DNA from: Aplysia californica | Lineage: Eukaryota | Assembly: GCF_000002075.1 (NCBI RefSeq) | Contig: NW_004797358.1 | Span: 612,539-676,538, forward strand | Length of the DNA stretch: 64,000 nt | Direction of reading: 5' to 3' | In this document: one piece after another, positions 2,207-62,298 of the stretch | Layout: each line of letters opens with the position of its first letter | How positions within the stretch are numbered: position 1 is the stretch's first letter | Program-made: the position numbers and the translations under genes | Notes under the pieces: model-generated | Told to the model about the DNA's origin: nothing | Databases searched by the model: none | Seen by the model: the letters and a program-made list of their open reading frames with translations, nothing else

Positions 2207-2344
2207 TGGTCTGTGTGAGCCAGAGTGTGTGAACATTCTCTCTGGCCCTCTGAATGAGAAGGAAGTGTGTGTCCCAGACTGTGGAGGGACTACCCCCTGT
2301 GACCGTTTCCTGAGCAAAGTCAGTGTACAAGTCTACAATGCCTG
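2207..2344 (+). CDS. Exon A, repeat 1 (GLCEPECVNILSGPLNEKEVCVPDCGGTTPCDRFLSKVSVQVYNA)
   Basis: cacag|...|gtgaga; 138 nt; phase 2-2. Confidence 0.9.
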
Positions 2345-17300: not shown

Positions 17301-17747
17301 CTACACTCAAACTGCTAATGCACTGTTATTATTTTTGAGTGCTAGATCTAGGTCTAGATCTAAATTGTCAAAATATTTTTTTCTTCCCAAAATCACTACT
17401 TTTTGGTGAAATTCCACAAAAAAGTGCCTCTCAAGACATGTATAGGTTTATTCCAAATGCAATTCTGAATAATTCCATAAGATACGAGTGTTTTTTTCTG
17501 TTTGTGATCCTTTTATCAAGATTATAAAAAAAAAAAAAATTTTCAATATCGGATGTTATGATCCAAATGTACAAATATTATGGAATGTATGTAAATAACT
17601 GCAAATTTTTCAATACTNNNNNNNNNNNNNNNNNNNNNNNNNNNNNNNNNNNNNNNNNNNNNNNNNNNNNNNNNNNNNNNNNNNNNNNNNNNNNNNNNNN
17701 NNNNNNNNNNNNNNNNNCACACACACATACATACACACACACACTCA

Positions 17748-17801
<54 letters not shown>

Positions 17802-35800: not shown

Positions 35801-36122
35801 AACATATCAGTGTGTGCCCTCCATTTCCCTCAGCATGTGCCTTTGGTTCGTCGTGGAAGTAAGCTCGTTCCTACCGTCCTTCCATCCATTTTCCTAAATG
35901 GTTTGCTCATTCTTTCTGACTCTGCTGTCGTTCTTTTGTACTCCTTTCTTCATTCTCTTGTGAATCAATTTCCTTCTTGCGCTGAAATGACCTCATTGTT
36001 TTTAAAGTGCCGTAAATCTCTAACTCAACTCAGTCAACTTTCTGTCTTTCCATCGTTTTTGTCTGTCAAGAATAATTTTTTACTTTTCCGTTTGTTTGAA
36101 CCCAAACACAGGAAGCTAAACC

Positions 36123-36184
<62 letters not shown>

Positions 36185-45100: not shown

Positions 45101-48100
45101 TCCAAAATTTTGAACCTGCTTCTTTATTGTACCATGATATTAAAATAAATTTATTAACTCCTCCACTAACTCGTTTGTATGGCATCATGAAAAGTTTTCA
45201 TTTCAGAAGTCACTTTTTTAATTGGATTTTTCCCTCAGATTTGTGCCCCATTGGACAAAACAATGACATTGGTGAGTGTGTCTCTTGTCCCATTGAACAA
45301 TACACTGATGATGGTCAGTGTGTACCTTGCCCTGAAGGCTACACCACCCTCACAGAGATGGCTCTCTCAGCTGATGAATGTATTGGTATGCTTATTATTT
45401 CTTATATTTATAGCTCCATTGGTACTGGGATAAAAAGAAAAATATATATAAATTCTACTTGATAACAATTTACAAATGTCTTAATAAAAATATATTTATG
45501 CAGCATTGACTTCATAGCTTTAGTCTTCTGCCTGTTGAACCATTGAGGTTCTGAAAGTTTTTGTTGGATTGAATGACAAAATATTCATTTTTAAGTCATC
45601 TGGGTTTCATGCTGATTACAGTTGAGGATTCTCAAACTTGGTGAGCTAGGTTTCCTTGTGTTGAACAATATTTCATTGTAACCTCATTTTGCTGTTACTT
45701 TCTTTACATGTTAGTTTTGGTTTTCTTTTGACATGTTATATAATAACTCATTGTGTGGTGTTCTGAGTATAGAATTGATTCTGGTTGCATGTGTGTGTGT
45801 TTGTGTACATTTGTGTGAGCAAAAACTCAACACGTGTTTTGGTGTGGGTTTGTGCAATGGGAGCATTTGTACCAAAAAATCTGCCAGATCTGATTTGATG
45901 TATGCTGTGTTTCCCTCAGTCAAGTGCAAGGCAGGGACAGGTTTCTCTTGGCTCAGTATGAGTTGTGAGAAGTGCGTGGCTCCCCAGTACAACAACGGCT
46001 CGGACAAAGTGTGTTATTTCTGCCCATATACTACCAACTTGTCATATGCATGTGACAACAGCGATCCTGGTAATTTTTATACTCCAAATTTCTCTCACTT
46101 TATCTATATTGTTTCCATTTTCTCAAAGTACCAAACAGCTGCATCATATATCATGGGGATTCTTTTCCTTTCCTAAATCCATCCTGTTTAGCTGGACATT
46201 GTTCTTTGTCCCTTTGTCTGTCTCTGCTTCTCAAATTTCAATATCACTTTCTTCCTAGCAGACTGTTGAGTTTTGAGAATTTTTAGCAAGATGATTTGTC
46301 AGACATCTGATAGACATCAGTATATTGATGGGGATGATCAAATGATGAAAAAAAAGAGGCAGCTGGCTAGGTTTTGTGTGGGATTTTTATGTATAGGTAA
46401 TGTAAATATTCAATCCCAAAGCACAACATATATGCAAATAAAACTTGGTCATGATACCATTAAAGAATATTTTTTTTTAAACCATATTTGTAACAGAAAA
46501 ACCTTGAAAGAAATTGTTGATTAGAACACTGACAGTGACAACGTTGTCAGTAAACATAGTTATACTAGCACTTGGTCAGGTTGTGTGGAAGATCCAATTG
46601 AAATTTGACATCAGATTTATCCACAGTATCACTTGCATAATTGTAAGATTACAGTTGAAATTTTCATAGTTTGCTACTCATTATTGAGGAGAAAAGTGGG
46701 AGAAAAGTGGTTATCTTAAACATTTGAACATATTGGACTTTGTCTTTGTAATATGTAAGGCATCATAGTGAAATCAGGCATTCGTCAAAATAATGTACTT
46801 GAAGAAATCTTCCTTTTTTCAGCCAGTTTGGAAATTTTTCTCAATTTTTTTTTGGCTTAACACCTTGTATGTCCTTTCAAAAATTCATTTATTTGTGGAT
46901 TTAGTGAAAAAATAATGATTAAAGGCCTGAAAAATGCAAATTTGCAGTTTCCTAGGACTCTTGAGCTTTGGAAGTTACCAAACTTAGGCGGCTTTTTCTC
47001 TAAAATTTTTCTTCTGAAATCAGGCGACCCCACCTCCTTCTATCACAGATATCTCAACTTCTATTCAAGAAAAATGGATATTTTTTAATCGAAAGCATGG
47101 CAAATGAACAAGCTTTAAGATGATACCGATAACTCCTTATTCCCCAAAATTGACAAGCGCCAGATTCCACAGCGCCGAGACACATATATATTTTTTAAGA
47201 CCTCAAGGTAGGAAATGGTAAGTGATTGTTTGTACAGGTGATTTTCTTGGACAAGTGAAGGTTAGAATAGGTTCTGCTGTATCTGGTAAAAATCTATTCC
47301 ACTCTATGTGAACACACTATAGAGAACTGTCATCATTCCATGGAAACGAATAACAGTTACAATTGTGGGAGAATAAAATGATAACCTTACCTTTCCCTTG
47401 CTGCGAGTAAACATTTATCACTCCAACCCATGTGTCACATCACACCATCCTATCAAATCCATGTACTAGCTATTAAAAAACAGGGATATGGTTTATATAT
47501 AGGGACAAATGAGAAAAGGTAATCAGCTGGGGTGGCATAGTTTGAACCTCACGGTGTTACATCATTACCTCTTTTGACTGGAGAAGTAGGGAGATGTGGA
47601 CAACACAACAACGATGAAGAGAAGGGGAGGGGGATGTCAAAAGTTATCTGCTAACATGTGCACACTTTCTTTACTTTGAGACATTATGATTACCCTTAGG
47701 GTGGCTTAATTGTTCTTCTTGGTTTTCCAGTGCGCAGTGACAACACATCATTCCTAGACATCTCAATAAGTGTGAACCTCACCCTGACATCTTGCGACAT
47801 GTTGAAAATGATGCCAGATGTGAGTCCAGAGGAAGTTATCAACGGGATGATGCAATACGTAACCAGGACACTCAACGGAGGTTCAAGGTAATATTGTTAT
47901 CTTTAATTTACATGCTATTCAACTCTACTATCTTTTGGAGCTTAGACAATTTGGTAACTATTGCATACAGCTTTTAAGAACATAATGAAGGTGACATAAT
48001 GTTGCATCAATTGTATAACACTGACTTACGAGAAGGATAAAAGTTGCCTCTGATGGATTGAAAAAAAAAATGTGAAGTAATTGTTTCCTCTTCATCCTCT

Positions 48101-51100
48101 CCTTCCTCTTTTTTTTACCTTTTTTCCTTTTTCTCCTACTCCATGCAAGAGTTGGAACTTTTTGCAGATTATGTACAGACTGTGAGTTTTTCATCTCTCA
48201 ATGAAATCAGTCTTTTTACTCAGATTGCCAGTTTACTCATAGAACATTTTTCTCAGCTTTCAGATCAGTAAATAATTTTTTTGAAATCTGTTCAGTGTGT
48301 CCAAACTTGACTTTCTTTGCAAAAAATGGCATCACTTATTCAGTGTTAACAGCTATATCTTCATCAAAATGAAACGTATTGGTTGCTGTGTGTTATAACA
48401 TATTACAATTTTTATACCAATTGTTTTTGTAATCTGAGCTATAAGTTTCTAGAACAATCTTTGCCTCAAATTTTCAATAGTCTGTCTTATATATATTTCT
48501 CTTATCTTATTTTTTTTCTGGCTTCCAGTCTAATTATTTTTGTCATTGTCTACAGGATTTTATTCACAATGATAGATATCTCAAATGACTTTGACAACAC
48601 GTCATTTTGGTGGCAGGCACATATTTTTTACTTTCAGGCTCATGGAGAATAATAAACATTACGGCTTGTTAGGTGCATGCAGCTGTCATTCAATAAAATT
48701 TGCAGCTCTGTCGATGGTCTAATATCGATTAGAGCTTGGTCAAGATGATCTACTCTTCTTCTAACTACACTATTCCAGCCAAAGCAACTGCAAACTGAGT
48801 TCACAATACTGTTGTTGTAACATTTATGCTTTCATCCTTCTATTAGGACACCTCATCCTGTTGCATGTTCATTCATACTGCGAGCCTGGTGCGAACCTGT
48901 TATGTGGTGTTTTATTAATTAAGCTCCATATTATATATACAAGGATGGTGGATAGGCAGCGGTGTCCATGAACGGATGTACTCTGTGTGTATTCTCTACA
49001 GGACCAATGACCATGAATATGGTCCCATGGTTGACACCCCCCCGCCCCCCCTCCCCCTTTATGTACTTAGGTAGACTTCATGTCCCTCTAGTTTGTCAGT
49101 TAATAATGACGGTACAGGTAACATCTGTATCATCGGTCAGTTGTTGCTATGTACTAAGCAAAAAGAATTTTGAAAATGTTTATTATTGTAGTTTCTTAAT
49201 CTGTGGTATAGATTCTAGATCTAGTTTGCATTTGCTCAAGAATTATTTTAGCAAAATTCAAATTCAAATTAATTTTTTTTAAAGAGGAAAAATACATAAT
49301 ATTGATACAATTTTGTCAAATGTTTCTCTCTCCTGAAAAACTTTGCTTTCTCTGTGCCGTACATTTTAACAGCAGGCTGATGATATGTTGATATGTTTGT
49401 ATTTATGAGCAATTTTATACCAATACCCTATTAAGTTTTCTTTTTTAATGTGTGGCCCTGTTACAGAGGTCTATGCCAACCAGAGGGAGAATGCAACAAC
49501 ATCCAAACTGTCCTGGGTAATGACTACTGTTCCGATATTGGTGATCGCGTACTTGTTCCACTCAACATTCACTTGTTCAATGTATGGTAAGTGAAATTTA
49601 TTGAAACCTGCCTGATACTGAGGATCAGAAAAGCACATGTTATGTGAGTCATCATGGTGAAATCAGGCACTCGTCAAAATGATGAAATCAAAGAAATTAG
49701 CATTTTTCTGGCTGTTGAGTAATTTTTATTTTTAACATTTTTTTTAGCTCAACACCTTTTACATCCAATTAAAAACACATTTGTGAGTGGATTTTACTGA
49801 AAAACATTGATTGAAGGCACAAACCATGTAAATTTTCATTTTCCAAGGACTGTCAAGCTATGGAAATTACCCAATTTTGGCAGCCATTTTCTTGCCAATT
49901 TTACCTCTGAAACCAGGCAACCCTGACCTCCTTCCATTGCAAATATCTCGACTTTAATTCAACATAAATGGATATTTTTTGTCTTTTTTGTCTTTAGGCC
50001 TTTCCCAAAGAGGAGATATTTACATGTTAGTATGCATAGTAGAATTGTTAATAGGCTGACTTATTAATGTCATGCTCATACTGTGCCGAAACAACATAAG
50101 GGGAACTGCTGTTTTTTCTTTCCTCATCCTTACTATCGTTGTTTTTCCTCTACTTCTTTTGCCTGTTTGTCACTCTCTTGTGACCTGCTATTTTTGGGGT
50201 GCCTTAATAGTCGAAGCAGACTATGTGCTGTTGAGGCTAGAGAGATGAGCAGAGTAAGCCTGATTCCCCGTTTGGACTTCTCTGTTGACATCCACCCTTT
50301 AGCGCTCATATGACCTTATACAGTTCCGAGCGCCGTAAAACCTTACTTTGAAAATAATTATTTTTTTTAGGATATTTTTTTTCACCAAATGAAAGGCAAA
50401 TGAACAGGCTTTAAGATCATACCAGTAACCCCGTATGTCCAAAGATTGACTACGCCTGATTCCACTGCATTGTCGCCCAGATATGTCGCAGTGTGTTTGA
50501 ATCAGGCACTGGTCCATTCTTTTGTTTGTTTTAGTGGAGGTTTTACGGCGCTCACAGCTGCATAAGGTCATATGAGCGCCAGAAGATTATAAGAGGTGTT
50601 ACAAGAGAGTAACAAAGATAAAAAAGAAGGAGGTGGAGATAAGGATGATAGATGTTTGATAGGAAAGAAGAAGCAAACCTCACCAGAGTACCTGCCAACC
50701 ACCCACGGTCCATTCTTTGGCATATAGAATTATTGCTGTCAAATTAAAGACTGTCGGGGTTTTTTTTAACTTGGTGAAAAAAGGGTTGATTTATCTTGCC
50801 TAGAATTGGAGATATATGTGGTTTAAGAAAGCAGGGGTTAACTGATGATACTGGTAAAATTAGCAAATGGCCACTAAAGTTTGGTGGCTGGTAAAACTGA
50901 ATACTTGTATGCAGTCTACAAAATAATATATTTTTGCCTGTAAACCACATTTATCTGTAGAATTCACCTTAAAATATGCTCTTTAATGGATGGAGAAGGT
51001 TTCAGTGCAAAAAAAAAATTATTATTCAGTAGAGATCGCCCAACAGTAAAAAAAAAAATATTGATTTAACTCCATTCCCTAAAATTTGATTAACAGCCAA

Positions 51101-53985
51101 TTCCACTGCAATGACTCACATATATCTTCAAGTGTTTACTGCTCTATATTGAAAAAAATGAAAAGTGGTATTTTCAAACGTCATGCCTTTGTCTTTTATG
51201 TAATGTTTTACCATAAAGAACCTGCCTCTCCTGTGGATGCAACATTTTTGTGTGTTAAAAATATATCGTTTGATTCCATGAATAACAGCATATATCTACA
51301 GTATGTACCAGAGGTACCAAACTGTATGAGAGATTTTCAAGATTTTGATAATTTTATTGGATGCTTCGTGCATATATGTTAATTGTAGAGATGAACTTGC
51401 TACTCCTCTATATAACTCTGCCAGTGAATACTTTTGCAGGTTGTTTTTTTTCCAAACGATTTATGAAAAAATCACCAGTAGGTAAACAATCTTTAAATGT
51501 CGAGAAGGCATTTCCGTATGTTCCTCATGTCTTATGACACTTTTTAACACTTTTTCAAAACACAATTAAGCATGTTACCAGACATGTTTGTAAAGGTTGA
51601 TCTCTCCTTGATAGAGAGGGATCAGGTCTTAGAGCTCATGGACTTTGGCACTCACAATTTGTATTGCTTAGTCAGTGAAACATCAACAAGAACCTTTATT
51701 ATCTTTACTTATATTGGAACAGTGTATAGCCTGTTATTACTCTTTCCAACCTGCTTTATTTTGGACATTCTATATTTCTTGGTTTTACAGGTAAAACTTT
51801 CCATTTTTACCAGCCTTTAATATTTTTTGTCTTATGTTTCTGTTTGGAACAAGGGAACTTTGTGTCAGTGCAAAAAGGTTAAATATTGATTTTAAACATT
51901 CTTATTCACCTTACTGAGAAAATGCAAGTTCATCCTCAAATACCATAAAAATTGTTGCCTACATTGACTACATTGACTATATTGACTTTAGTCTTAAAAT
52001 TTGTTTCTTAAGATCAATATTTTGATTTGTTTTGATTATGAGGTAATATGTTAACTCCCACAGAACTGTCCCTAATTGCCATTTCATTTTCACATTTCAG
52101 GGAAGAAGTTGTATTACGTGATGGAAGAAGCCAGCATGCAGTGGAGGTGTTTTTGCAAACTTTAGCAAACATGCCTAAGTTTGCATATTATAATCCATCA
52201 ATGGTAAGTTGGTTCAGGGCAAATTGGGAAACAATTCTAGGACTCAACTAAATCGAAATTAACAGTGGTCTGATTCCATTTTTGCTCATTTTGGGAAAAA
52301 CACCGCAACACGGAGAAGGCTGTACATTTTTCAGCGCAATAATGGTCCAAACCCTTTACCTTCTATTATGTCATTTGATATTCTATCACTGGAGATAGCC
52401 TTCCATTTGATTCTCAAAGGAGCTCGCCATGGAAACTTAGATTTTGTCAAAATTGAAAAAGCGACAGGCACTTTTGTCGCTGTATTTTTAAATTTAAGAG
52501 CATAGCTACTCATGGTTTAGCTTGTTCATTGCTGATACAGACAATTCAGATAGTCATCGAATCTCTGACAACTGACACAGTCGGCAAGCTATTCAAATGT
52601 ACTGAAAACAGAGCAAAATTTGGCAGGAGTGTACCTCTACATTATTTTTTTTTTCATGTTTTCTTCAACATTTAAATTTTGACTTTTGACAAAATATTTA
52701 TTGAATACATACAACAGGTACCTCAGATTAGGAAACTGAAGTAAAAAAAATTTTCAGCACAGTACATCTCAACAGATTACAAACGACAGATTGATCTGTA
52801 TATTAGTATTGGAGGAAAGGAAAAACCTTTCCTACTGAATCGAGTTCATTCATTAGTGTATAAAGTTGAAGTCTTTCTATTCTATTCTTGTATACTTACT
52901 GTGACTGTTGTTTAAAGTCATAAAAAAATCTGCAAATCCCCAACATATCCATTTTGAATACAATAAAACTTTATGTTCATTGTGAAAATAATTCATTTCT
53001 TCTCTGTTTGGTGTTTATTTTATGCAAATAGGTTTAATAGGAGCAGACTTAAAGGGAATTTTATGGTTCTACAATATTGAATGACAATATCGGTTGTGGG
53101 CAAAGGTGGAATAACCTACAACTAACAGTAAATGACTTATAATACTGGAAACCAGGTGATGATCACCCTTCTGTTTAGAATAGAAGTAGATACCTGGCTA
53201 CCATGAAACTGTTGGTTTTGAAACTTACCCTGCAAACTTGTGCTTAAAGTTACTTACTTGCTAACTTTCTGGGTTGTAGAATAGGCATCATTGTAGGCAG
53301 CACAATTGCCATAGCTGCTCCTCCCTCCTCTCCAGGATCCATGAAAGGGTCTGTTTGCTGATCGTGACAGTTATCAGCTGGTTTGATATTCTTCTGGCTT
53401 TTCCACATAGATTGCTGTCACTCTCCTCCCCTCTTGAGACACGTAAAATTTGACTTGTTGACTTTAATCCTTATCCTTCCAAGAGCAGTTCTTGCCAGCT
53501 TTATGTGTTGTTTTGGGAAGGGGGTGAGGGGGGTGGATTGCTTTACTTTTAAAATAACACATTCTGTTTGTAGTAGCACTGACAAAATCCTACAAAAGCA
53601 AAAAGATGAGATTCATTAGACATTGTTGGTAAATTGTCCTACATTTTCAACTTCTCTATATCTTTCATTTATAATTAAAACCTTTTCTTTCAGGTGGCTT
53701 ATGAACCAGTGTTTTCCTTACCTACAATTTCGGTTGATATCCGTCATTCAGGTAATGTGTACAATACCCTTTGTACCGATTATTTAGAGATTATCATGTC
53801 ATGTAATAACAATGCAACCTATCAAAGAGAACAATTAGTGAAAGGGGAATATGGAGTGTCAGAAGGACAGAGATAGACAGACAGACAGGGAAAGAGATAG
53901 ACAGAATCCTAGGCAGAGAGACAAGTTAGCAAATGGACAGACACAGAAAGAGAAGAAGTGACCGACCGCCAATTAATGATTGGAC

Positions 53986-54043
<58 letters not shown>

Positions 54044-57000
54044 AAGGTCATTGGGGCACCACCTACACACCTATCTTTCAATGGTCTTAACTTCTAGTTG
54101 TTATATAATTCCACTGCATAATTTTGGGTCCACTCTTTGGCATCATCTTCTTTCATTTGGTCTTCCTATTTGAATTTTAACTTTTTTGTCCTTTTTGAAT
54201 TGTAATTTTTTATCGTAATGTCAAAACAGAATACAAAACGTATATAGCAGTTGGAAGAAAGTGATCTCTGTTGCTGACCATTAAATGTCAAGGTCAATTT
54301 TCTATGTTGGTGTTGTGTTTTTCATGGTATGAACACCTTAATTTATGAGGAAAACATGACAGTGACTAAAAAGTAATGATCATGCAAAGTTAACATATTG
54401 ATATAAACAGAAATTGCTTTGTTTTTAAATCCTTCATACCTGGTGCATATAGGAAATCGAATTCATTTGATTCAGTCAGGACCAGTGAGATTTTCTTTCT
54501 TGGAGAGGCAAAAGTTGCCATTTTAGCACAGCACAACTGATTTGATTTGCAACCCTGTAAAACGAACACATCTAATTTAATGGAATTCGATCGAATTATG
54601 GTGAAATGGCCGGTTTTGTCCCATCCATGAAGGAAATATGGCTAGCCCAGATTTAAATTGGTGAATCCAATATGCAGTGTCACTGGGAATTAGTTTTATT
54701 AGTATCTCTGTTCTGATCATATGTCTGTAACATATCTGATAATTTTGCGGAACAGTTGGAGAGGCAAGACGTCTGTGGGTCACTGTGAATCTGAATGTCT
54801 CGTTTGAGAAATTCTACACCGACCTTGAAGACAGAAGGACGAGGGAGCTGATTGAAAATATGGGGAGAGCGGTATGGATTATAACTTCACATTTGAAAGG
54901 CTGCTTTTCTATCTCAGTTTCTTTGACCCGCTACTTTGAATTGATATTCTGCATATCTAGAGAGTTTATCTTATTCAGTCAAAGCTGAAAACTAGGAAGA
55001 AAGCTGCAGGATAAATAATGTACTATGTTTCACAGGGAAAGCAAAGAAGTGTAAATATGACTTCTCGTAATATTTTCTGAGGCAAAAGAAACACGAGCAT
55101 TTGAAATATGTACAAAACACATTAAACTCAACAAAGGTTTGAAACTTAAATGTATCCTGTCAATAGGTGGGTGTTATAGTGTAGTTTTAGAGCCACTATG
55201 TTAATTCTGTGACCTTGACCTTTGGACAGGAAGTTAGTACTGTGTGTGACTTCCATTGGCTGCAATAACTGCCCTGCATGTTCAACCCATAGATAAGAGT
55301 GTTAATTTGTTAACTCTAGAACTATACACCTACCTGGCCGATGGCTGTGGCCAATTGATAAGTTGTCTGTTTCTGTGGTTGCAGCTGGTTGAGTTGCCTC
55401 TGGATAGCATCCCAAACATGCTTAGTGGCACCTTTAAGTCAGGTGAACGAGCCAGATGAGGCGAACAATTGGTGTTGTTCTGCTCCAAGAACTGCTGTGT
55501 TACAGGGGCAGTAAGAGGTCTTGTATTGTCTTGCTGAGAAAAAAAGTTTGGATGTCATTTAGTTTAGTAAGAGTTTTACAGCACTGTCTGTTCGGATGTC
55601 TGTGGAAAAAGGGTGCCACAAGAGGCTAAAGAACGTGTGCAATATAGCACTGAGCTGTGACCTCAATTCTTTGTCCATGACCCACATTCTGGAAGAAGTC
55701 TGGTCCAATTATGCTTTGATTAAAGGCAATGGTTCCCCAAAACATGCTTTCCCCTCTCCTTAGATGATGGCATCAGCATAGCATGTCAGGTATGTGCTCC
55801 TCACACGAATGTGCCTATTTGCCAGATTAGTGCAGAATATGCTCAACTATGAAATTTTAAAGGTTTTTTTTGGCCTCTTACCATACAATAAGAGTGCCTT
55901 TTATGTTAACTTTTAAGTCAGGATGAGTGTCCTATATCCTTATGTATAAGAGAAATATTGTCGGCACATAGTTTCATGGCCAGGCTGGTCTTTTACTATG
56001 ACACATTGATATTTCCTAGACATTTGCATTATTTATTAATGAGCAAACCAATCAAGGAGGACTTTACTTCTACTTTTCAGGCTACACAAAAGTTTTCCCA
56101 CTTGGGTCTTATTTATCCAGAATTCCATGGCATGGGGTAAGCATACCAAGTTTTATCAGAAATTAATCATGTGTTATAATGCAGTGGAAACAGGCTTTCA
56201 TCAATTTTTAGGCATATGGAGTTATTGGCATCATCTTAACTCATTCGCTACGCCGAGCCGTGGGGGGCGGCGCGGCTAATGTGTCGTCAGTTCGCTAAGC
56301 TGCCCCCGGCGGCTCAAGACCCGATCTTTATTTTACCTCAGATTCTATTCCAATCCACATATCCAGGTTTAAATAAAGTTCATAATATAATGTTGACTTC
56401 CGGGTCAAGCATTTCCACTGAAAATCGGAAATTTAGATTCAGTTTTGAAAGGCGATTTCGTAGTTTATTCGACTTTGTTTTATCGAGATGCCAAAATTAT
56501 AGCCCGGACACCAGTCTTAGTAATTTTACAAAACCATATCTATCATTATTTTGCCCACTTAAGAAATGTAGGACTCTTTTGTATAATATTGATACGATTG
56601 GACTCATTGCCAATGCACTGTTATTGAGAAATTAATATTTTTGAGTGCTATATCTAGATCTAGGTCTAGATCTAAATTGTCAAAATATTTTTTTCTCCCC
56701 AAAATCACTACTTTTTGATGAAATTACACAAAAAGTGCCACTCAAGACATGTATAGGTTTATTCCAAATGCAATTATGAATAATTCCATATAAGAAACGA
56801 GTGGGTTTTTTCTGTTTGTTATCGTTTTTCAAGATTATAAATTTTTATTTTTTTTCAATATCGGATGTTATGATCCAAATGTACAAATATTATGGAATGT
56901 ATGTAGATAACTGCAAACTTTTCAATATTTTCCTCTTCTATATTCATTTATGGTTATTTTGATGTATCATTTGACTAGGTGCAAACATATTTTTTAAGTT

Positions 57001-60000
57001 TCACCAAAGATTATTAATTTTTTATTTTCAAATTTTATCTGCATCCAATCAAAATTGTGTTGTATAATCGCCTCTTTCAGGAACCAAAGTTGAAAAATAC
57101 ATAAACAAACATTACAGATGTATTCTACAAACCATACTGAAAATGTTGGTATGTAATATGTTGATATTTATTTGAATTTGTGGCCCCAAAGACCTTAACC
57201 TTTTAACTGCCCACTAGTCATCATCTCTTTCGCCCTCCCGAAAAAAAATTTGTCCACAAGCCGAAAATAATACGTAGCGAATGAGTTAAGGTTTGTTCAT
57301 TTGTCTTGCTTTCGGTGAAAATATTATCCGTCTGTCTGCAATAGAAGTCTAGATTATGCGGATTTAAAGAAGTGGTTTTAGAGGTAAAATTAGAGAGAAA
57401 GTGGCCACCAAAGTTTCGTGACTTTAAAAGCTTGAGAGTCCTTGGAAACTGTAGGTTTACATTTTTTGTGCCTTAAATCAGCGTCTTTCAGTAAAAGCTA
57501 CACATCAATGTGTTTTAGATGGACATAAAGGTGTTGAGCCAAAAAATAAAAATTTGATAAAAATTGCCTAACAGAAAGAAAGATAACGTTTTCTTCGATT
57601 TCATTATTTTTACGGGTGCTTGATTTCACCATGATGCCTCACAATTGGAGCAGTTTAAGATTTCAAGCAGTTCACTATTTTCTCATTGTTTTATATTTTG
57701 TGTGAAATCGCTCTGTTGAAATAATATTGCCTTTTTTGTTACAAGGTTGCCTAGTGGTTAAGGTACTATAATACAAATGAGATGTGGCCGTGATACAAGC
57801 TGGCTTCTAAAAGCATTAACTGATCAACTGAGGAAGAAACTTACCTACCTTCTACCTAATACTGATCCTAGACCCAGCTTTGCCCGAGGGGATCCAGTCC
57901 AGTACCATCCTCGGGAATATGCAAAGGCCTACTCAAGCATCACATATATAGTGGACATTTGACTAGATGTGCCTTTACCTAACACTTTATTGGTGACTTG
58001 TGTACTCTGTTGTAGCTCGTGGGAGAGAGAGGGAGGGATGGGGGGAGAGAAACTTGCTTTGTGAGAATTATCCTCAGTAGCTAGGAATCTGTTTGATTGT
58101 GTCCTTGTTTTATTAAAAATTTGTTTTTAAGTACCAGTCCAAATAAAATATGCAAATCTTTCCTAAAATTCCTTTTGAAGACGAAACTGCACTTATGGTT
58201 TTCGTAATTCATGGATCTTATTTACTCTGCAGATCATATGAAGAGAATGATCAGTCATATGTCTCATTCCACGCAAGCCTCTTTTTCTGGACCACTGTAA
58301 ATGACTCAATAATCCAGGGAGTAGCATCTGAAGCTTTGAAAGCCCATTCCATGAACGGAGGAAGGTTTGGAGATTCTGGATATTCCTTCATCGGACCTGT
58401 TTACTTGTACCTCACTGAGGAGGACCAAAGCTCTAAGTCACCTGGTACAGCCTTAGTTAGTGGACTCTGCCAAAATCTTCTGCCTTTTGGTGTCTGAAAA
58501 TTAACGCTTATATAGTATATGGCTTGATTGATTACAGCTGTAACAAAAACCCCGCTGGTCCTTGTAATTTAAGACCAAACTGTATGTTTTAGCTTGGATG
58601 ATCCATTTCTACTCAGTTTGATCTTTATTTTATGTAACTAGGTTAAACAGGAGTGAAATTATTGGAAAGTTTTGTAATGCTGAAAACTTGGATGACAAGT
58701 TTGTTTGTGTACAAAGCAATGAGGTTATACAGTCATGGGGGCTGCTATGTGGGCGGCAACGTACGCCTGATAGAACCTGCGCTGCGCGCTGCCCGACTCT
58801 CGCACTGAAATCTAGATAGGAAAGAAGGTTTTATTCTGAGATCCTTGAGATTCAGAAAGTCAGTAGACTTATTTTATGTTTTAAAGCCCTTTTATCTCAT
58901 TACTATTACTGATATCAAAATATAGTCTATGTCCTAGCAGCTCCATACCCATTTTTAAAAAATCCAGTACCTACTTAACAAAAACGGCGAATAACTTCTC
59001 TGTTAAAGAAAGATGAAGGGAGGGGGGTGGGTGGTAAGAGTCTGAGTCTCCTTTAATAGTAAATCTACTGTACCCAGTTTGATCTATCATAGTAGTTTGC
59101 ACCTGAGATCCCATTGTTTATGATACCCGGTTCACTTAAGATTCCGTTGTTTAAAGAAGAAAAAAAAAAGAAACTACCCCCCAAAAAACAACAAATTTTG
59201 TTACAGAAAAGTCATCCCTTATAAGATCCCACTCTGGAGTCTGAAGTTCCCACACTTTAGATTTTTTTTTTTTACTGAACAAAAAAAACTTCATAGATCA
59301 TCCACACTCATACATGATACGATCACATCTCTGCTCTAAATTTCTTGACGAGTTTTACAATATTCGCCTCAGGCGCTGAGGGCCTTACAATGAAAGGATC
59401 ACACCCGGTGTGAACTTTTGGACGTCTTTGATTTCTCTGAACATCGAACTACAGCAAGGCGTGATTCAGTAGGCAGGGCCGAAAAGGCCGAATCAGATGG
59501 GATCAAATCGAACTGTGATTTCATCGGTGCTTTTGTTTTTGTGACCATCTATCACATGTGCATCCGAATTTGCTGGACAGACTTTGCGCCTGTACTCTGG
59601 GACTGTCCGGTCGCCTTTGTGTAATGTTGAGCCAGCCTTTCATTCTTAGAATTTTAATTGGTGCGTTTACAAAACAATGATGAGTTAAGACCTGAATATG
59701 AGAGGGGATTTCGGTCAGAGATGAAGGAAAGCAATAAATACTTGACAGAAGGCAAAGGGGAGGAGCAATGAGTGAGATAACGCTTTATTATTGTCATAAT
59801 AGACGAAGGAACCCAACGACATAGGTTAATTATTACCAAAGATAGTAAATAACAAGATGGGCCACTCAGCCAAAAAAGTGTCCGCAGGAAGTATGCTCTT
59901 TGCTTCAGATGGCGCTGCAGTCTGTTTTGAAGCTCTCTTTCATTTTTCCAGAAGAAGAATAGGAATAGCACCTCCTTGCGTGCGCAGATCGACTGCTGTT

Positions 60001-62298
60001 CATCAGCAGTTCGGGTTCGTTCAGTGTGGAGTTTTAGTTTTTTTTTATTTTAATGACCTCTCGCCTTTCATTCTAAAGTCAAATTAAACGAAGAAAACAA
60101 TCACTCTTTCTTCCGGAAGAGGTTTTTTTGTCAGCGTAACCATTTTAAAAAAGCGTTCTTCCGAAATTTATTCAAAAACTTGCTAGTTTCACTTTGATTT
60201 TTTAAACTCAAGTAGGGTGACTCTGTTCGCAAAAGGTGCGCTTTTGTGAAGAGGGCGCCACCAAATTTTGAGGACACTTTTTTAATTGGCTCAAAGAGAG
60301 AAGTGGCCCCTCTTGTTATGTAGACTCTTTGTTATTACGCATCAGTAGGTCTACAGTTAGTAAATTTGTATCCCATTTTAAAAGACAAAGGATACTGTAA
60401 TTATCATTACCTTTTCAATAGTTAAAACCATGGAGGAGGGGGGATACACTTCGTGTTAAAAAAAAAGGAAACAAAATTACTGTGCTCAATAATTCATAGA
60501 CAAAGGCATCATTGTAAGCAATCAGTTAAAGCTGATTTTGACTCTCTTTTGCTCTATAATGATCATGTGTGAAGGCCTTGGCTATCTTAAGTCTAAGTGA
60601 AGGCCTTTTACCTATGCTTTCTAGGCCTAAGACAACGTAGTCCTTTACATTAACCATAACTCATGAAAGCTAGTAATGGCACACCTGTTCAATCTTGCAA
60701 TCACTGTGTCAAATTCAATACTTTGTGGTATGTTTTAATAACGAAACCTTTCAGCAGGATCTTACAGTAAGATTTACCCTCCTGTCTGTTTCATAAATAA
60801 TTTTCTGTTACTCGGCAAGACAACTGTTGTTTTTTTTCTCCACCTCTACTTCTCCCACAAATCTCCAACCCACCGCCTTTTTTATTTTTAAACTACTTTG
60901 TTTCACAACTAGTCAACATGGGGATCAAAACGTAAAGTTTATAGACAGTCTTTATCAGACNNNNNNNNNNNNNNNNNNNNNNNNNNNNNNNNNNNNNNNN
61001 NNNNNNNNNNNNNNNNNNNNNNNNNNNNNNNNNNNNNNNNNNNNNNNNNNNNNNNNNNNNNNNNNNNNNNNNNNNNNNNNNNNNNNNNNNNNNNNNNNNN
61101 NNNNNNNTACTCTCCCAAGCCCGCCTCACCATCTTCACCCCTCTTTTTTTGCACATATTCCCTCCCATACCGTAGCCCAGTGCCCAGGCCTACCGTATAT
61201 CCTTGTAAAGAAAAAAACGCAGTTCGCGCTGGATGACCATAGTTTGCGCCATTTTGTATGTTCCACTGGGTATGTGGCGCACGGTGCCACGAAGAGAGAG
61301 AAGAGGGTCCATTTGTTGTAAGGTCCTTGGTACGGAGGAAAAAATAGCCTTCTGTATGTTCAGAGCAAGTTAGAACTATGATGTCAAGTAAGGTACTAGT
61401 CCATGTTAGTTTTATGGCAGTGCATAGGTTTATCATACCTGATGCTAATAGGGAAATCATTGAAAAACATCAACATATTTATCCTCTTTGATCATGCGAT
61501 AATTGTTGAAGAATGGAAATGAATAGAGCTAGCAGACTGCAGGTGGTCTTCACAGTTCTAGGCTTGCTATTGGTCAGTTGCTGTGTTGCATTCACTGGAA
61601 AAAAAGGACTTCTGCTAGTTATTTCATAAAAATTTGGTTTATGTTGTGTTTATGTTTTGTTAGTATATAATATCAAGACATACTGAGCAGACTACACTGA
61701 GATCATTCTTTTGGCCCAAGTTAAGTGTATCTTGCTCAATGAAACACCCATGTGAACACCACTTTCATAAAGAACGCACTATCATTACTTGACACTGTTT
61801 ATGAACTTGCATGTATTGACCTTCTGAACACTGAAGCTACCAAAATAGCTGAACGACAATTCTTTTAAGAAGAAAAGGATATACAGTTGAACCTTCTCCA
61901 ATGGCCTAGTATCGAAGACAATTGCATATATAAATGACCATATCCTACTTCCCACTTGAGGGGGGGGGAGGGTTGTACATTATAATGACACTGTCCAAGC
62001 CATTCACCTGCCTAAGACAACCCCTTTTCTCCTTGAAAATCAGTGACTGTCTTGGACAATCTTGACTGAATATCGACAAATCCCTCCTATCATAATTTGC
62101 AGTCTTTAACTGAATATTTTGTGGTGCTTGTGTACCTACTCAGAGTAGATTTTTGTCTGATATTTTACTATTTTTTGCCTGTTGTTGCAGCATTGGACTG
62201 GTGCAAGTTCCTGGCAAAGTGGCAGGAGGCAGCCAATCAAGTGTGTGGTCCTCGAGAGATGTGTATGAATACTGAAGGCTTCTTCAAGTGTGAACCAG
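2207..62298 (+). CDS. Partial multi-exon gene (45 exons, ~1,755 aa in window) for a giant extracellular SEA-like/EGF-like/ephrin-receptor-like Cys-rich repeat protein
   Basis: Hand-spliced GT-AG exons join in phase with no stop. Order: (A-N)x2, A-G, then diverged O-X. Domain names come from motif recognition by eye (PGSTVV SEA motif; CxxCPxGxTT..A.S...C; C..G..CxNTEGxFxC), not from an HMM search. Confidence 0.88.
2580..2655 (+). repeat. 38-bp tandem duplication in intron A1-B1
   Basis: GGTTTTTCTGTCTACCAATTATTTTCTCCTTGTTTCTA x2. Confidence 0.9.
2848..2965 (+). CDS. Exon B, repeat 1 (ELAQSLTASRHNRSSVDVLLEHFYDLTPLYKIAYSEPEY)
   Basis: cgcag|...|gtaagt; 118 nt; phase 2-0. Confidence 0.9.
3335..7223. 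mobile_element. Composite TIR insertion in intron B1-C1
   Basis: ~37-bp imperfect inverted repeats at 3333-3369 and 7189-7225; internal repeats of CCAGTTAC(A/G)CG(G/A)TT; absent from the same intron in repeats 2 and 3. Confidence 0.65.
4643..5850 (-). pseudogene. Degenerate Sola1-like transposase
   Basis: Minus-strand fragments LTEGHTWMRVNRVHSTIQR, SIRPGDPIVDIK and KYKHLQELKP..DFHASYDALPHD* resemble Sola1 motifs (GHTQMExDSVHSxIE; SIRPG..GDP.V.DI). Confidence 0.65.
7306..7360 (+). CDS. Exon C, repeat 1 (DGFDVHFEFPIKPEVTFV)
   Basis: cccag|...|gtaagt; 55 nt; phase 0-1. Confidence 0.9.
7956..8068 (+). CDS. Exon D, repeat 1; start of SEA-like domain (YKARLVFFSVVLNKNFSDIWYQWSDTAIKLGERMGEL)
   Basis: gacag|...|gtaggt; 113 nt; phase 1-0. 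Confidence 0.9.
8375..8430 (+). CDS. Exon E, repeat 1 (AADEFGDLGYLYGKLDQI)
   Basis: ttcag|...|gtaagt; 56 nt; phase 0-2. Confidence 0.9.
8798..9009 (+). CDS. Exon F, repeat 1; second half of SEA-like domain
   Basis: tgcag|...|gtgagt; 212 nt; phase 2-1; inside ORF 8682..9041. Confidence 0.9.
9185..13832 (-). mobile_element. Near full-length degenerate RTE-clade LINE, interrupted by a Chapaev element
   Basis: APE fragments (IKIGTW, HGVAFII) and RT fragments (KAPGPDDI, YRGISLLS, FADD, KYLGS, RGRPRKRW); AAAGT-type tail; TSD GTGTTCATA at 9176-9184 and 13833-13841. Confidence 0.92.
9901..11864 (+). mobile_element. Chapaev-type (CMC/Transib-related) DNA transposon, internally deleted
   Basis: CAC...GTG termini; 4-bp TSD GGTA at 9897-9900 and 11865-11868; RAG1-N-like relic from 10533; QAYHSRSFIGNHCHK and PKHHIVENH...GEQGGERIHA transposase relics; removing it restores the LINE frame (LQNHTT-KLNN). 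Confidence 0.85.
14077..15023. mobile_element. hAT-like MITE spanning an assembly gap
   Basis: TIRs CAGACCTGTCA / TCGGCAGGCCTG; degenerate 8-bp TSD gtgaaccc/gcgaactc; subterminal CCTGAT repeats. Confidence 0.55.
15311..15412 (+). CDS. Exon G, repeat 1; 4-Cys EGF-like (VSWCDVVETVSVPGHCGKEFTCTEKTVFKNCSG); one of two identical assembled copies
   Basis: ctcag|...|gtttgt; 102 nt; phase 1-1. Confidence 0.7.
16103..16117 (+). CDS. Microexon H, repeat 1 (AWKTS); one of two identical assembled copies
   Basis: Long pyrimidine tract, catag|CTTGGAAAACCTCAA|gtgagt; 15 nt. Confidence 0.65.
16422..16557 (+). CDS. Exon I, repeat 1; first half of SEA domain (FLRFEIDKDFDASDSWAVEVAVRANVSELLESLNSEYHVAVIHV); one of two identical copies
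   Basis: cacag|...|gtaagt; 136 nt; phase 1-2. Confidence 0.7.
16944..17617 (+). mobile_element. MITE family A, gap-truncated duplicate of 19868-20888
   Basis: Left TIR CTCATTCGCTAC. Confidence 0.8.
17719..17797 (+). repeat. (CA)n microsatellite beside a gap
   Basis: Seen directly. Confidence 0.95.
18235..18336 (+). CDS. Exon G, repeat 1 (second identical assembled copy)
   Basis: Offset +2924 copy of 15311-15412. Confidence 0.7.
19027..19041 (+). CDS. Microexon H, repeat 1 (second identical assembled copy)
   Basis: Offset +2924 copy of 16103-16117. Confidence 0.65.
19346..19481 (+). CDS. Exon I, repeat 1 (second identical copy, contiguous with exon J)
   Basis: Offset +2924 copy of 16422-16557. 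Confidence 0.72.
19868..20888 (+). mobile_element. piggyBac-type MITE family A (~1.03 kb)
   Basis: TIR CTCATTCGCTAC / GTAGTGAATGAG followed by TTAA; absent at the paralogous site near 37327. Confidence 0.85.
21071..21264 (+). CDS. Exon J, repeat 1; second half of SEA domain with PGSTVV motif
   Basis: tacag|...|gtaagt; 194 nt; phase 2-1. Confidence 0.9.
21689..21772 (+). CDS. Exon K, repeat 1; 4-Cys EGF-like (LHSICYMGFECPEGSRCVATNSIPICE)
   Basis: tccag|...|gtaaga; 84 nt; phase 1-1. Confidence 0.9.
22261..22368 (+). CDS. Exon L, repeat 1; ephrin-receptor-like Cys-rich (PCDYGEFRERDAGCEMCPNGTTTLVPEAISQHMCV)
   Basis: ctcag|...|gtgagt; 108 nt; phase 1-1. Confidence 0.9.
23027..23134 (+). CDS. 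Exon M, repeat 1; Cys-rich (NCSSAQVLSLETLECQDCPDGFYPDSDPPVCYVNS)
   Basis: ctcag|...|gtaagt; 108 nt; phase 1-1. Confidence 0.9.
23467..23650 (+). CDS. Exon N, repeat 1 (LPVENRRMDIHLTVTLVTNRCDEENTNFSKANVTRGLKDMARGLISARFYTAQDLSRTVY)
   Basis: gacag|...|gtgagt; 184 nt; phase 1-2, joins exon A in frame. Confidence 0.9.
24156..27940. mobile_element. Foldback-type MITE (~64-bp TIRs, internal ~57-bp and ~215-bp tandem units) split by the RTE insertion
   Basis: Left end ATGTTCTGCACAATTTA...TTTTAACAATCGTACAATTG mirrors 24734-24761 joined to 27905-27940. Confidence 0.7.
24762..27892 (+). mobile_element. Full-length but disabled RTE-clade LINE (APE + RT)
   Basis: GTWNV, GLCETRW, GDFNA, NQIDH and DSDY APE motifs; RT motifs YRGIMLL, QAGFR, FVDYEKAFD, GVRQGCLLSP, YLGS; 12-bp TSD AAAATATGCAGC at 24750-24761 and 27893-27904; (AG)n tail; frameshifts; FADD motif missing. 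Confidence 0.95.
28375..28519 (+). mobile_element. Short 5' endonuclease fragment of another RTE-like LINE
   Basis: LNIATWNVRKMYQ..KLDHIEQEM..LGLSEVRW with frameshifts. Confidence 0.65.
29028..29165 (+). CDS. Exon A, repeat 2
   Basis: Identical to 2207-2344. Confidence 0.9.
29638..29755 (+). CDS. Exon B, repeat 2
   Basis: gtcag|...|gtaagt; 118 nt. Confidence 0.9.
29854..30893 (+). mobile_element. piggyBac-type MITE family A (1,040 bp)
   Basis: TTAA on both sides; empty site ...atgTTAAggtcagtgtg at ~3047 and ~41952. Confidence 0.92.
31227..31281 (+). CDS. Exon C, repeat 2
   Basis: cacag|...|gtaagt; 55 nt. Confidence 0.9.
31891..32003 (+). CDS. Exon D, repeat 2
   Basis: aacag|...|gtaggt; 113 nt. 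Confidence 0.9.
32304..32359 (+). CDS. Exon E, repeat 2
   Basis: tacag|...|gtaagt; 56 nt. Confidence 0.9.
32727..32938 (+). CDS. Exon F, repeat 2
   Basis: tgcag|...|gtgagt; 212 nt. Confidence 0.9.
33223..33324 (+). CDS. Exon G, repeat 2
   Basis: ctcag|...|gtttgt; 102 nt. Confidence 0.88.
33569..33956. mobile_element. TTAA MITE (388 bp)
   Basis: TTAA-CTCTTTATCT ... AGGTAAAGAG-TTAA; absent from the repeat-1 intron near 15582. Confidence 0.8.
35636..35893 (+). pseudogene. Decayed THAP zinc-finger domain
   Basis: MGRKC*IGGCKTGY...LYGFPSDETECRAWI...VCALHFP...VPTVLPSIF; C2CH plus FP, W and PSIF signature, with three stops. Confidence 0.85.
36126..36181 (+). repeat. (GA)n microsatellite
   Basis: Seen directly. 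Confidence 0.95.
36474..36488 (+). CDS. Microexon H, repeat 2
   Basis: catag|CTTGGAAAACCTCAG|gtgagt; 15 nt. Confidence 0.8.
36802..36937 (+). CDS. Exon I, repeat 2
   Basis: cacag|...|gtaagt; 136 nt. Confidence 0.9.
37506..37699 (+). CDS. Exon J, repeat 2 (PGSTVV)
   Basis: tacag|...|gtaagt; 194 nt. Confidence 0.9.
38131..38214 (+). CDS. Exon K, repeat 2
   Basis: tccag|...|gtaaga; 84 nt. Confidence 0.9.
38705..38812 (+). CDS. Exon L, repeat 2
   Basis: ctcag|...|gtgagt; 108 nt. Confidence 0.9.
39250..39920. mobile_element. TTAA MITE (671 bp)
   Basis: TIR (T/C)TCTTTCCGG(G/A)CGTA; flanks CTAA and TTAA; empty site gcctTTAAtg near 22711. Confidence 0.8.
40232..40339 (+). CDS. Exon M, repeat 2
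   Basis: ttcag|...|gtaagt; 108 nt. Confidence 0.9.
40672..40855 (+). CDS. Exon N, repeat 2
   Basis: gacag|...|gtgagt; 184 nt. Confidence 0.9.
41304..41441 (+). CDS. Exon A, repeat 3
   Basis: Identical to the other two A exons. Confidence 0.9.
41742..41859 (+). CDS. Exon B, repeat 3
   Basis: ggcag|...|gtaagt; 118 nt. Confidence 0.9.
42252..42306 (+). CDS. Exon C, repeat 3
   Basis: cacag|...|gtaagt; 55 nt. Confidence 0.9.
42912..43024 (+). CDS. Exon D, repeat 3
   Basis: gacag|...|gtaggt; 113 nt. Confidence 0.9.
43335..43390 (+). CDS. Exon E, repeat 3
   Basis: tacag|...|gtaagt; 56 nt. Confidence 0.9.
43758..43969 (+). CDS. Exon F, repeat 3
   Basis: tgcag|...|gtgagt; 212 nt. Confidence 0.9.
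44261..44362 (+). CDS. Exon G, repeat 3
   Basis: ctcag|...|gtttgt; 102 nt. Confidence 0.88.
45239..45385 (+). CDS. Exon O; ephrin-receptor-like Cys-rich (DLCPIGQNNDIGECVSCPIEQYTDDGQCVPCPEGYTTLTEMALSADECI); diverged paralog of L
   Basis: ctcag|...|gtatgc; 147 nt; phase 1-1. Confidence 0.9.
45920..46069 (+). CDS. Exon P; Cys-rich (KCKAGTGFSWLSMSCEKCVAPQYNNGSDKVCYFCPYTTNLSYACDNSDP); paralog of M
   Basis: ctcag|...|gtaatt; 150 nt; phase 1-1. Confidence 0.88.
46755..47185 (+). repeat. Old dispersed repeat family B (other copies near 9150+13842-15170, 22540-22880, 38980-40095, 49640-49980, 56175-57645, 63080-63590, 63715-64000)
   Basis: Recurring motifs CATCAT.GTGAAATCAGGCA.TCGTCAAAAT, TTTCCAAGGACTCTC, GAACAAGCTTTAAGATGATACC in both orientations. 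Confidence 0.75.
47731..47887 (+). CDS. Exon Q (RSDNTSFLDISISVNLTLTSCDMLKMMPDVSPEEVINGMMQYVTRTLNGGS); paralog of N
   Basis: tccag|...|gtaata; 157 nt; phase 1-2. Confidence 0.85.
49467..49586 (+). CDS. Exon R (GLCQPEGECNNIQTVLGNDYCSDIGDRVLVPLNIHLFNV); paralog of A
   Basis: tacag|...|gtaagt; 120 nt; phase 2-2; shares the GLC.P..C.NI start and split TGG codon with A. Confidence 0.88.
50295..50586. mobile_element. Short MITE with ~45-bp TIRs, related to dispersed repeat family B
   Basis: GCGCTCATATGACCTTAT..GAGCGCCGTAAAACCT inverted at both ends; interior shares TGAACA.GCTTTAAGAT.ATACC with family B. Confidence 0.75.
52101..52203 (+). CDS. Exon S (EEVVLRDGRSQHAVEVFLQTLANMPKFAYYNPSM); paralog of B
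   Basis: ttcag|...|gtaagt; 103 nt; phase 2-0. Confidence 0.85.
53694..53751 (+). CDS. Exon T (VAYEPVFSLPTISVDIRHS); paralog of C
   Basis: ttcag|...|gtaatg; 58 nt; phase 0-1. Confidence 0.8.
53989..54039 (+). repeat. (GA)n microsatellite
   Basis: Seen directly. Confidence 0.95.
54756..54871 (+). CDS. Exon U; SEA-like start (GEARRLWVTVNLNVSFEKFYTDLEDRRTRELIENMGRA); paralog of D
   Basis: aacag|...|gtatgg; 116 nt; phase 1-0. Confidence 0.85.
55110..55950 (-). mobile_element. Tc1-family transposon relic
   Basis: Minus strand QQDNTRPLTAPVTQQFLEQNN, ARSPDL, KHVWDAIQRQL and AVIAANGSHTQY* (stop at 55234-55236); outer boundaries approximate. Confidence 0.8.
56081..56136 (+). CDS. Exon V (ATQKFSHLGLIYPEFHGM); paralog of E
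   Basis: ttcag|...|gtaagc; 56 nt, same length as E; phase 0-2. Confidence 0.85.
56240..57285 (+). mobile_element. piggyBac-type MITE family A nested in a family B repeat
   Basis: TTAA-CTCATTCGCTACG ... CGTAGCGAATGAG-TTAA. Confidence 0.92.
58233..58444 (+). CDS. Exon W; SEA-like second half; paralog of F
   Basis: tgcag|...|gtacag (weak donor); 212 nt, same length as F; L(K/R)AH...G.FG...F.G...L.T.ED shared with F. Confidence 0.85.
62191..62298 (+). CDS. Exon X; EGF-like (LDWCKFLAKWQEAANQVCGPREMCMNTEGFFKCEP); paralog of G
   Basis: tgcag|...|gtcatt (weak donor); 108 nt; CxNTxGxFxC calcium-binding EGF-type motif. Confidence 0.85.

Follow-up and report, generated by a model that had tools for sequence, protein, structure and literature searches.

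What gene does a stretch of DNA belong to when one long set of exons recurs in it in the same order and frame, and by what route did that gene grow? The window analysed here comprises 64,000 nucleotides of the Aplysia californica genome (contig NW_004797358.1, below C88; C88:612539-676538), and a sequence-only reading had described it as part of a giant extracellular protein built from 2.5 tandem copies of a 14-exon unit. It was examined together with 190 kb of upstream and 200 kb of downstream flank; coordinates are those of the window, negative ones lying upstream of it and those above 64000 downstream.

Self-comparison of the window revealed three partial copies of one long unit, with exon ends set from the sequence itself. 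The exons A to N measure 138, 118, 55, 113, 56, 212, 102, 15, 136, 194, 84, 108, 108 and 184 nt and sum to 1,623 nt, or 541 codons, every exon being bounded by AG and GT. The copies and the diverged exons that follow them are:

2207..23650 (+): repeat unit copy 1, A-N, AG/GT ends, open frame; exons A 2207-2344, B 2848-2965, C 7306-7360, D 7956-8068, E 8375-8430, F 8798-9009, G 15311-15412, H 16103-16117, I 16422-16557, J 21071-21264, K 21689-21772, L 22261-22368, M 23027-23134, N 23467-23650
29028..40855 (+): repeat unit copy 2, A-N, open frame, spliced joints in contigs of runs X4, X5 and X11; exons A 29028-29165, B 29638-29755, C 31227-31281, D 31891-32003, E 32304-32359, F 32727-32938, G 33223-33324, H 36474-36488, I 36802-36937, J 37506-37699, K 38131-38214, L 38705-38812, M 40232-40339, N 40672-40855
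41304..44362 (+): half copy 3, A-G, open frame, read contigs; exons A 41304-41441, B 41742-41859, C 42252-42306, D 42912-43024, E 43335-43390, F 43758-43969, G 44261-44362
45239..62298 (+): diverged tail module O-X, open frame, O an Ephrin_rec_like and X an EGF_CA match, homology to the snail protein P0008; exons O 45239-45385, P 45920-46069, Q 47731-47887, R 49467-49586, S 52101-52203, T 53694-53751, U 54756-54871, V 56081-56136, W 58233-58444, X 62191-62298
17828-20541 (+): exact second copy of 14904-17617 (G, H, I again), 100% identity over 2,714 bp

The chain of A2-N2, A3-G3 and O-X forms one stop-free frame of 1,214 codons, whereas the other two frames hold 90 and 59 stops, and the chain of the whole window runs to 1,755 codons, again with no stop. 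The sizes and phases of its exons, and its alignment to homologues, mark O-X as a diverged copy of L-M-N-A-B-C-D-E-F-G. The exon model proposed earlier, a 14-exon, 1,623-nt, 541-codon unit recurring in frame, was right. The accompanying statement that there is no stop or frameshift needs one amendment. A run of 100 N at 17618-17717 splits the two exact G-H-I duplicates of copy 1, and both sets together would add 253 nt and shift the frame. We thus treated the doubling as an assembly overlap, which it probably is, and excluded the second set from all counts; the absence of stops stands, while that of frameshifts holds only with one set dropped.

Four sequencing runs (X4, X5, X11 and X21) were compared with positions 28900-44770, the first three taken as RNA by guess, with contigs that show local joins only. 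None of the runs listed as matching is registered as RNA, a blank that we count neither way. Joints or multi-exon records in these three link A-B, B-C, C-D, D-E, F-G, G-H-I, I-J, J-K, L-M and M-N, and E-F and K-L are each shown by a record or loose ends. The in-frame splicing of N to the next A, as proposed from sequence, is found in record 7 of X4 (328 nt), in which 136 nt of N and 137 nt of A are followed by B, giving at least one N-A junction contig among the records listed. The raw poly-A run X21 had zero depth in the exon-only bins of 28900-44770. Together, the maintained frame and the spliced contigs support expansion within a gene rather than a cluster of genes.

The array reaches 85 kb upstream of the window, where the order is I-N at -85104, four full units, a J-N piece lying between two runs of N bases, and then the window's 2.5 units. 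In total it holds seven A exons and eight J-N sets between -85104 and 44362, so that the repeat number of 2.5 gives way to about eight units, whereas the exon N foretold upstream of the window is present at -3741..-3558. The upstream chains of 2,420 and 225 codons contain no stops, and two upstream exons shortened by 12 nt and 30 nt both keep the frame. Without exon A, pairwise pN/pS is 0.053/0.125 = 0.43. An older unit, ~30% identical, lies further upstream, partly inside gaps.

How many of these units are real depends on the assembly. Upstream, the block pairs a/c, b/d and c/d share 97.5-98.9% identity across 2-6 kb, introns included, which could reflect a recent two-unit duplication with conversion, or uncollapsed haplotypes accounting for at most two units. 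The array might even be partly an assembly product, its count inflated by allelic haplotypes placed in tandem and its exon A differences (see below) erased by consensus calling, a reading favoured by these same blocks, the exact 2.7-kb duplicate adjoining a gap, a scaffold mis-join at the 3' end and the many gaps of the region. We consider this unlikely: there are six versions of B-G and six of I-N that differ by 3.7-9.3% and carry their own intron insertions, C88 is free of N from -100226 to -6887, and exon A contigs from three runs of three studies hold no other letters, although contigs do drop rare variants. Depth of X5 on exon A was 575, compared with ~120-340 on the listed records of other exons, as expected if the copies share one sequence. 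Since the six versions of each half-unit differ by at least 3.7%, we place the number of units at six to eight.

Several mobile elements have entered the introns. A near-complete LINE occupies 24715-27972 (+) in the N1-A2 intron, with frames that we take from their motifs to be endonuclease and reverse transcriptase, both broken by frameshifts, and LINE-related fragments lie at 9279-9908 and 12654-13196 (-). Several introns contain a ~1-kb dispersed element with near-complementary ends, 79-89% identical between copies and likely a non-autonomous DNA transposon:

16943-17615, 19867-20893, 29853-30898, 56239-57290 and 93-544: copies of the ~1-kb dispersed element

The G2-H2 intron harbours a decayed reading frame at 35630-36050 (+), presumably THAP-like from its sequence, where X4 and X11 contigs show many differences.

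Relatives of the unit were sought with several methods. A profile search with exon F gave five matches, four of them relatives: Lymnaea P0003, A. californica P0004, a Biomphalaria fragment and one further fragment. P0001, a 4,396-aa bacterial autotransporter-like protein with ~30 exact ~104-aa repeats, was rejected as spurious, and P0010, which shares ephrin-like repeats only, was dropped. Word-index searches with exon F against proteins of 124-2,000 aa and with P0004 against proteins of 2,010-5,000 aa returned none (both weak blanks), and the ESM Atlas gave leads under 0.9 only. A second search recovered the Physella acuta 'mucin-4-like' protein P0008 (2,858 aa) and Biomphalaria pfeifferi P0009 (2,929 aa), both comprising a Ser/Thr stalk, one module, a NIDO block and an EGF array, with a TM segment in P0009. 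The tail module aligns with residues 535-886 of P0008 at 25% identity (E 3.6e-33), and by this sequence comparison O-X is the part closest to the single module of the snail homologues.

The exons beyond the tail identify the gene. On the same strand follow two SEA-like/EGF-like exon groups, an 18-nt exon, and then NIDO, AMOP-position, VWD, C8 and EGF exons; joined together, the 76 exons between 2207 and 136031 give 3,246 stop-free codons, with GDPH in frame. From NIDO on, identity is 43% to P0009 over 1,192 columns and 42% to P0008. Pfam, run on 21 flanking exons, matched the NIDO exon at 105601 (E 4.4e-7, 30.5 bits against a cut-off of 25), VWD (E 4.7e-7), C8-3_MUC4 (E 7.9e-8) and EGF_CA (to E 8.5e-12), and more than 20 EGF exons are colinear with P0008/P0009. 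The GDPH of the VWD domain is presumably the MUC4-type cleavage site. Pfam AMOP matched neither the four AMOP-position exons nor P0008/P0009; these exons share 33-55% identity with the corresponding Cys/Trp-rich region of the two snail proteins, and AMOP is the label we assume for what lies between NIDO and VWD. The architecture, which the sequence-only reading did not recognise as a named gene, runs into a NIDO-AMOP-VWD-C8-EGF block colinear with the Physella 'mucin-4-like' protein and with B. pfeifferi P0009. With good confidence, on sequence grounds, we regard the window as the middle of a single giant gastropod MUC4-like gene in which one module was copied, introns included, six to eight times. 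Because snail homologues hold one module, the family, like the mode of expansion, is known already and the expansion of the module in this family is the new part. A PTS domain is required in the mucin definition, according to the part of PMC1552070 consulted, and no Pro/Thr/Ser-rich domain was found in the gap-free X-to-NIDO stretch or in the unit (S+T 14%, P 4%), so we class the gene as MUC4-like rather than as a mucin proper; such a domain could lie in the missing 5' end, as in P0008/P0009.

It is very improbable that the repeat array belongs to one gene and the NIDO-AMOP-VWD exons to its neighbour, or that the product is secreted with no membrane anchor. Such readings draw on the 33 kb that separate X from the first NIDO exon, outside the read-compared 28900-44770, and on TM exons that lie on another scaffold. 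Against them stand ten linking exons in frame that align with P0004, the union of module and NIDO block in one protein in both P0008 and P0009, and the flank and repeat-variant pairing that ties C88 to the scaffold C117.

This pairing concerns the 3' end of the gene. On C88 the EGF exons end at 164716, before an LTR element; the next exon is unrelated and, as we take it, fucosyltransferase-like, and a search of C88 up to 100 kb from the last EGF exon found no TM exon. The closest DNA relatives of that last exon are on C117 and C2586, the C117 lead coming from the DNA search with this exon, as a search with the C-terminal part of P0009 was swamped by EGF matches. The same LTR family occurs on C117, directly ahead of the kind of exon that should follow:

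165006-170064 (window) and C117:475704-481048: LTR element copies with crosswise pairing of their flanks, both interrupted by a gap of 100 N

The 6-bp sequence to the left of the C88 element is found again to the right of the C117 element and not to the right of the C88 one, and the terminal-repeat variants pair crosswise too, C88 with C117. From this sequence pattern we infer a C88/C117 mis-join at the LTR element, and the gene probably ends on C117, where tandem EGF exons are followed by one exon each of the SEA-like, EGF and TM types, all linked to the gene by the LTR flank pairing only. C117:460097-468723 (-) contains at least 11 near-identical calcium-binding EGF exons in tandem, ~445 bp apart in mid-array, probably a second, younger expansion in the same gene. 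The whole small contig C2586 (C2586:1-7128) is made up of a 1-kb repeat, present seven times, whose two EGF exons are relatives of the last C88 exon, and is probably an unplaced part of the 3' EGF array. At the other end, 57 kb of upstream sequence yielded neither a start codon nor a convincing signal peptide; there is one weak candidate at -135257, in a many-gapped region. Candidate exons at -119789 and -118501 were rejected as gene exons, having no homology, and a TALE-type Homeobox_KN exon at -167784 on the same strand (E 3e-20) bounds the gene start. The summed open chains amount to ~5,900 codons, and we estimate the full protein, inferred parts included, at ~8,000-9,000 residues.

The genome encodes relatives of this gene. 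P0004 (LOC106011777, annotated as uncharacterised and partial) maps to C181, where the paralogue has a signal-like start, one unit, a Thr/Ser/Asn stretch, NIDO-AMOP-VWD-EGF exons and then SEA-like, EGF and TM exons. An AMOP-position exon is present in five genes of the genome. Three more NIDO/AMOP-type paralogues lie at C215:730478-818571, C357:70557-72428 and C52:482928-489781, the first also with EGF, SEA-like and TM matches; none showed a module in the 37-50 kb of gapped DNA upstream.

The domain labels given to the unit earlier fared unevenly. When 19 repeat and tail exons were scanned one by one with Pfam, L, M and O matched Ephrin_rec_like (O alone above the cut-off, E 3e-6), upholding the ephrin-receptor-like modules, and X gave a weak EGF_CA match (E 0.008), whereas the SEA and EGF labels of the repeat exons lack such exon-by-exon support, no single exon matching Pfam SEA. 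Residues 14-92 of P0003, colinear with I-J, reached SEA at E 0.13, below the cut-off. Folds were predicted for the homologues P0003 and P0004 (mean pLDDT 54 and 45) and not for the window's own unit. In these models the equivalents of N-A-B-C and D-E-F both adopt a strand-helix-strand-strand-helix-strand order at a local pLDDT of ~55-88. In VIA, the D-E-F equivalent matched MUC16 SEA (Z 8.4, rmsd 3.2, 100 aligned) and Gpr126 (Z 8.1); MUC16 or Gpr126 make up four of its top five rows (Z 7.7-8.4), with a ribosomal ferredoxin-like protein tying. For N-A-B-C, Gpr126 368-505, which we take to be its SEA domain, ranked first (Z 7.4), with MUC16 SEA at Z 6.4. Sequence identity in the MUC16 matches is 3-6%. 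Foldseek returned no structure at E<=0.001, profiles of the modules compared with one another and with snail SEA-like domains stayed below 2% probability, and a PDB sequence search with P0003 gave nothing significant. The SEA-like folds proposed for N-A-B-C and D-E-F thus gain weak support (Z 7-8) from predictions on homologues, and we keep SEA-like as a fair working label rather than a proven one, least secure for H-I-J. Exon J starts PGSTV(V/I) in 8/8 copies; the SEA autoproteolysis motif is of the G-S-V-V-V type.

Among known systems the closest are the gastropod MUC4-like proteins P0008, P0009 and the Lymnaea stagnalis fragment P0003, which share the order of a module with ephrin-like, two SEA-like and EGF domains, followed by NIDO, AMOP-position, VWD with GDPH, C8, cadherin-like domains and the EGF array. 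Identity to P0008/P0009, 42-43% from NIDO on, is 24-25% in the module. The stalk of these two proteins spans 330-350 aa with 50-59% Ser/Thr/Pro, compared with 22% in the linker before NIDO of the sea hare gene, and the snail homologues hold one module, compared with about eight young and two old units and no Ser/Thr stalk in the exons found. The paralogue P0004 resembles the array gene in its complete unit of the same order (29% identity), two further SEA-like/EGF pairs, and NIDO-to-EGF exons that are 44-84% identical and followed by SEA-like, EGF and TM exons; it differs in having a single unit, and Thr/Ser/Asn repeats before NIDO where the array gene has the 18-nt exon.

The vertebrate MUC4 core is NIDO-AMOP-VWD-EGF-TM, without SEA, and its length comes from a Ser/Thr tandem repeat (PMC5039420, part consulted). 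The likeness to MUC4 is the shared NIDO/VWD/EGF core and is not a claim of orthology with the vertebrate gene. In the portion of PMC9080433 available to us, cnidarian mucin4-like proteins add SEA, CUB, ZP or FN3 domains N-terminally, and PMC4948705 describes, in the part seen, Xenopus proteins with alternating SEA and PTS. MUC16 is a membrane mucin with 56 predicted SEA domains in 156-aa repeats (PMC5039420, same part). Its tandem SEA domains are the top structural matches for the SEA-like folds predicted here, and it differs in lacking NIDO/AMOP/VWD, whereas the sea hare unit has 541 aa, 14 exons and seven domains; the array gene would work like MUC16 but is not a member. Other intragenic repeat arrays under concerted evolution include the long homologous repeats of CR1, the nebulin triplicate and LPA kringle IV-2. 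Abalone VERL, with 23 ZP-N repeats, likewise undergoes concerted evolution (PMC8830517, section consulted). The sea hare array probably shares with these four repeat growth by unequal recombination and homogenisation by conversion; here, in contrast, homogenisation is complete in 1/14 exons and stops within tens of bases, the other exons differing by 5-13% on average. Searching titles and abstract starts, we found no paper on this gene; the supplementary protein lists of PMC4948705 could contain it, and PMC13336835, in the part consulted, treats MUC4 as a network gene only.

The homogenised exon is exon A, whose invariance the sequence-only reading, which also undercounted the copies, passed over:

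2207..2344 (+): exon A of copy 1, the same in all 7 copies
29028..29165 (+): exon A of copy 2, the same in all 7 copies, X4, X5 and X11 contigs with 0 other letters
41304..41441 (+): exon A of copy 3, the same in all 7 copies

All seven matches to exon A in the genome lie in this array. Across the copies none of its sites vary, compared with 7-27% in the other exons, and the longest invariant run is 167 bp, compared with at most 43 bp at any other exon, taking in exon A and ~14 nt of each splice flank. Four-fold sites vary at 0/23 positions in exon A and at 42/156 elsewhere. The C-G rate predicts ~23 variable sites for exon A, a comparison in which sites are not independent and nominal P values overstate. 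Non-sister pairs are identical in 18/18 cases for exon A, as against 1/247 for the other 12 exons tested. On the homologue models, exon A would form a Cys-rich insert of 46 residues in the N-A-B-C SEA-like domain.

We posit that exon-centred gene conversion is the cause of this identity, which the sequence pattern makes somewhat probable. Identity ends 13-56 bp upstream and 16-81 bp downstream of the exon, varying by pair and reaching 440 bp upstream in the sister pair b/d, and the introns around exon A have diverged between copies. Nested short conversion tracts centred on A likely fit best, with selection as a putative driver. Alternatively, the units may be spliced as interchangeable cassettes, N joining the A of any later unit to yield stalks of variable length, with exon A fixed as carrier of the splicing signal. 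The unit length, a multiple of 3, and the matching phases would permit such splicing, and an invariant exon with ~14 nt of splice flank and 0/23 varying four-fold sites suits constraint at the nucleotide level. Yet exon A showed no RNA structure (z 0.08) and no Rfam match, its older versions (exon R and the upstream A-like exon) are ~30-40% identical to it in protein, at the low end only ~30%, and splicing signals rarely require 138 fixed bases. Conversion is preferred over splicing constraint because the tract ends are pair-specific, which leaves cassette splicing a small chance.

As to mechanism, an N-terminal module with three probable SEA-like, two EGF-like and two ephrin-receptor-like domains was likely copied by unequal crossing-over, and repeated short conversion tracts would keep exon A identical. 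The predicted product is a type I membrane protein, its anchor supplied by the SEA-EGF-TM exons that the assembly places on C117. Its repeats, each with 10 sequons, 22 Cys, and 78 D+E against 44 K+R, would form a long, stiff, disulphide-braced, N-glycosylated and acidic stalk, and the chances are about even that they take the spacer role of the relatives' Ser/Thr stalk. This stalk would hold a protective or adhesive coat off the epithelial surface. Cutting at GDPH in the VWD domain, as in MUC4, perhaps with a further cut in each unit at PGSTV, would let the protein be shed.

For work on the locus itself, the scaffold mis-join and false duplication would break automatic gene models. The array offers a clean case for how narrowly gene conversion acts inside a multi-exon repeat, and its invariant exon is the 46-residue loop most worth testing for ligands. 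More tentatively, and with a good deal of doubt, the Ser/Thr stalk may have been swapped for a ruler of folded modules while an exposed Cys-rich exon A loop was swept to identity by selected, exon-limited conversion. If true, the protein would act as a multivalent recognition array, presenting a standardised binding epitope once every 541 residues, and the gene would hold a within-gene selective sweep resolved to a single exon. For the family, the sea hare and its relatives would provide a natural side-by-side of two routes by which coat proteins lengthen, a Ser/Thr stalk in the paralogue and the snails and repeated folded modules, as in MUC16, on a MUC4-type body in the array gene.
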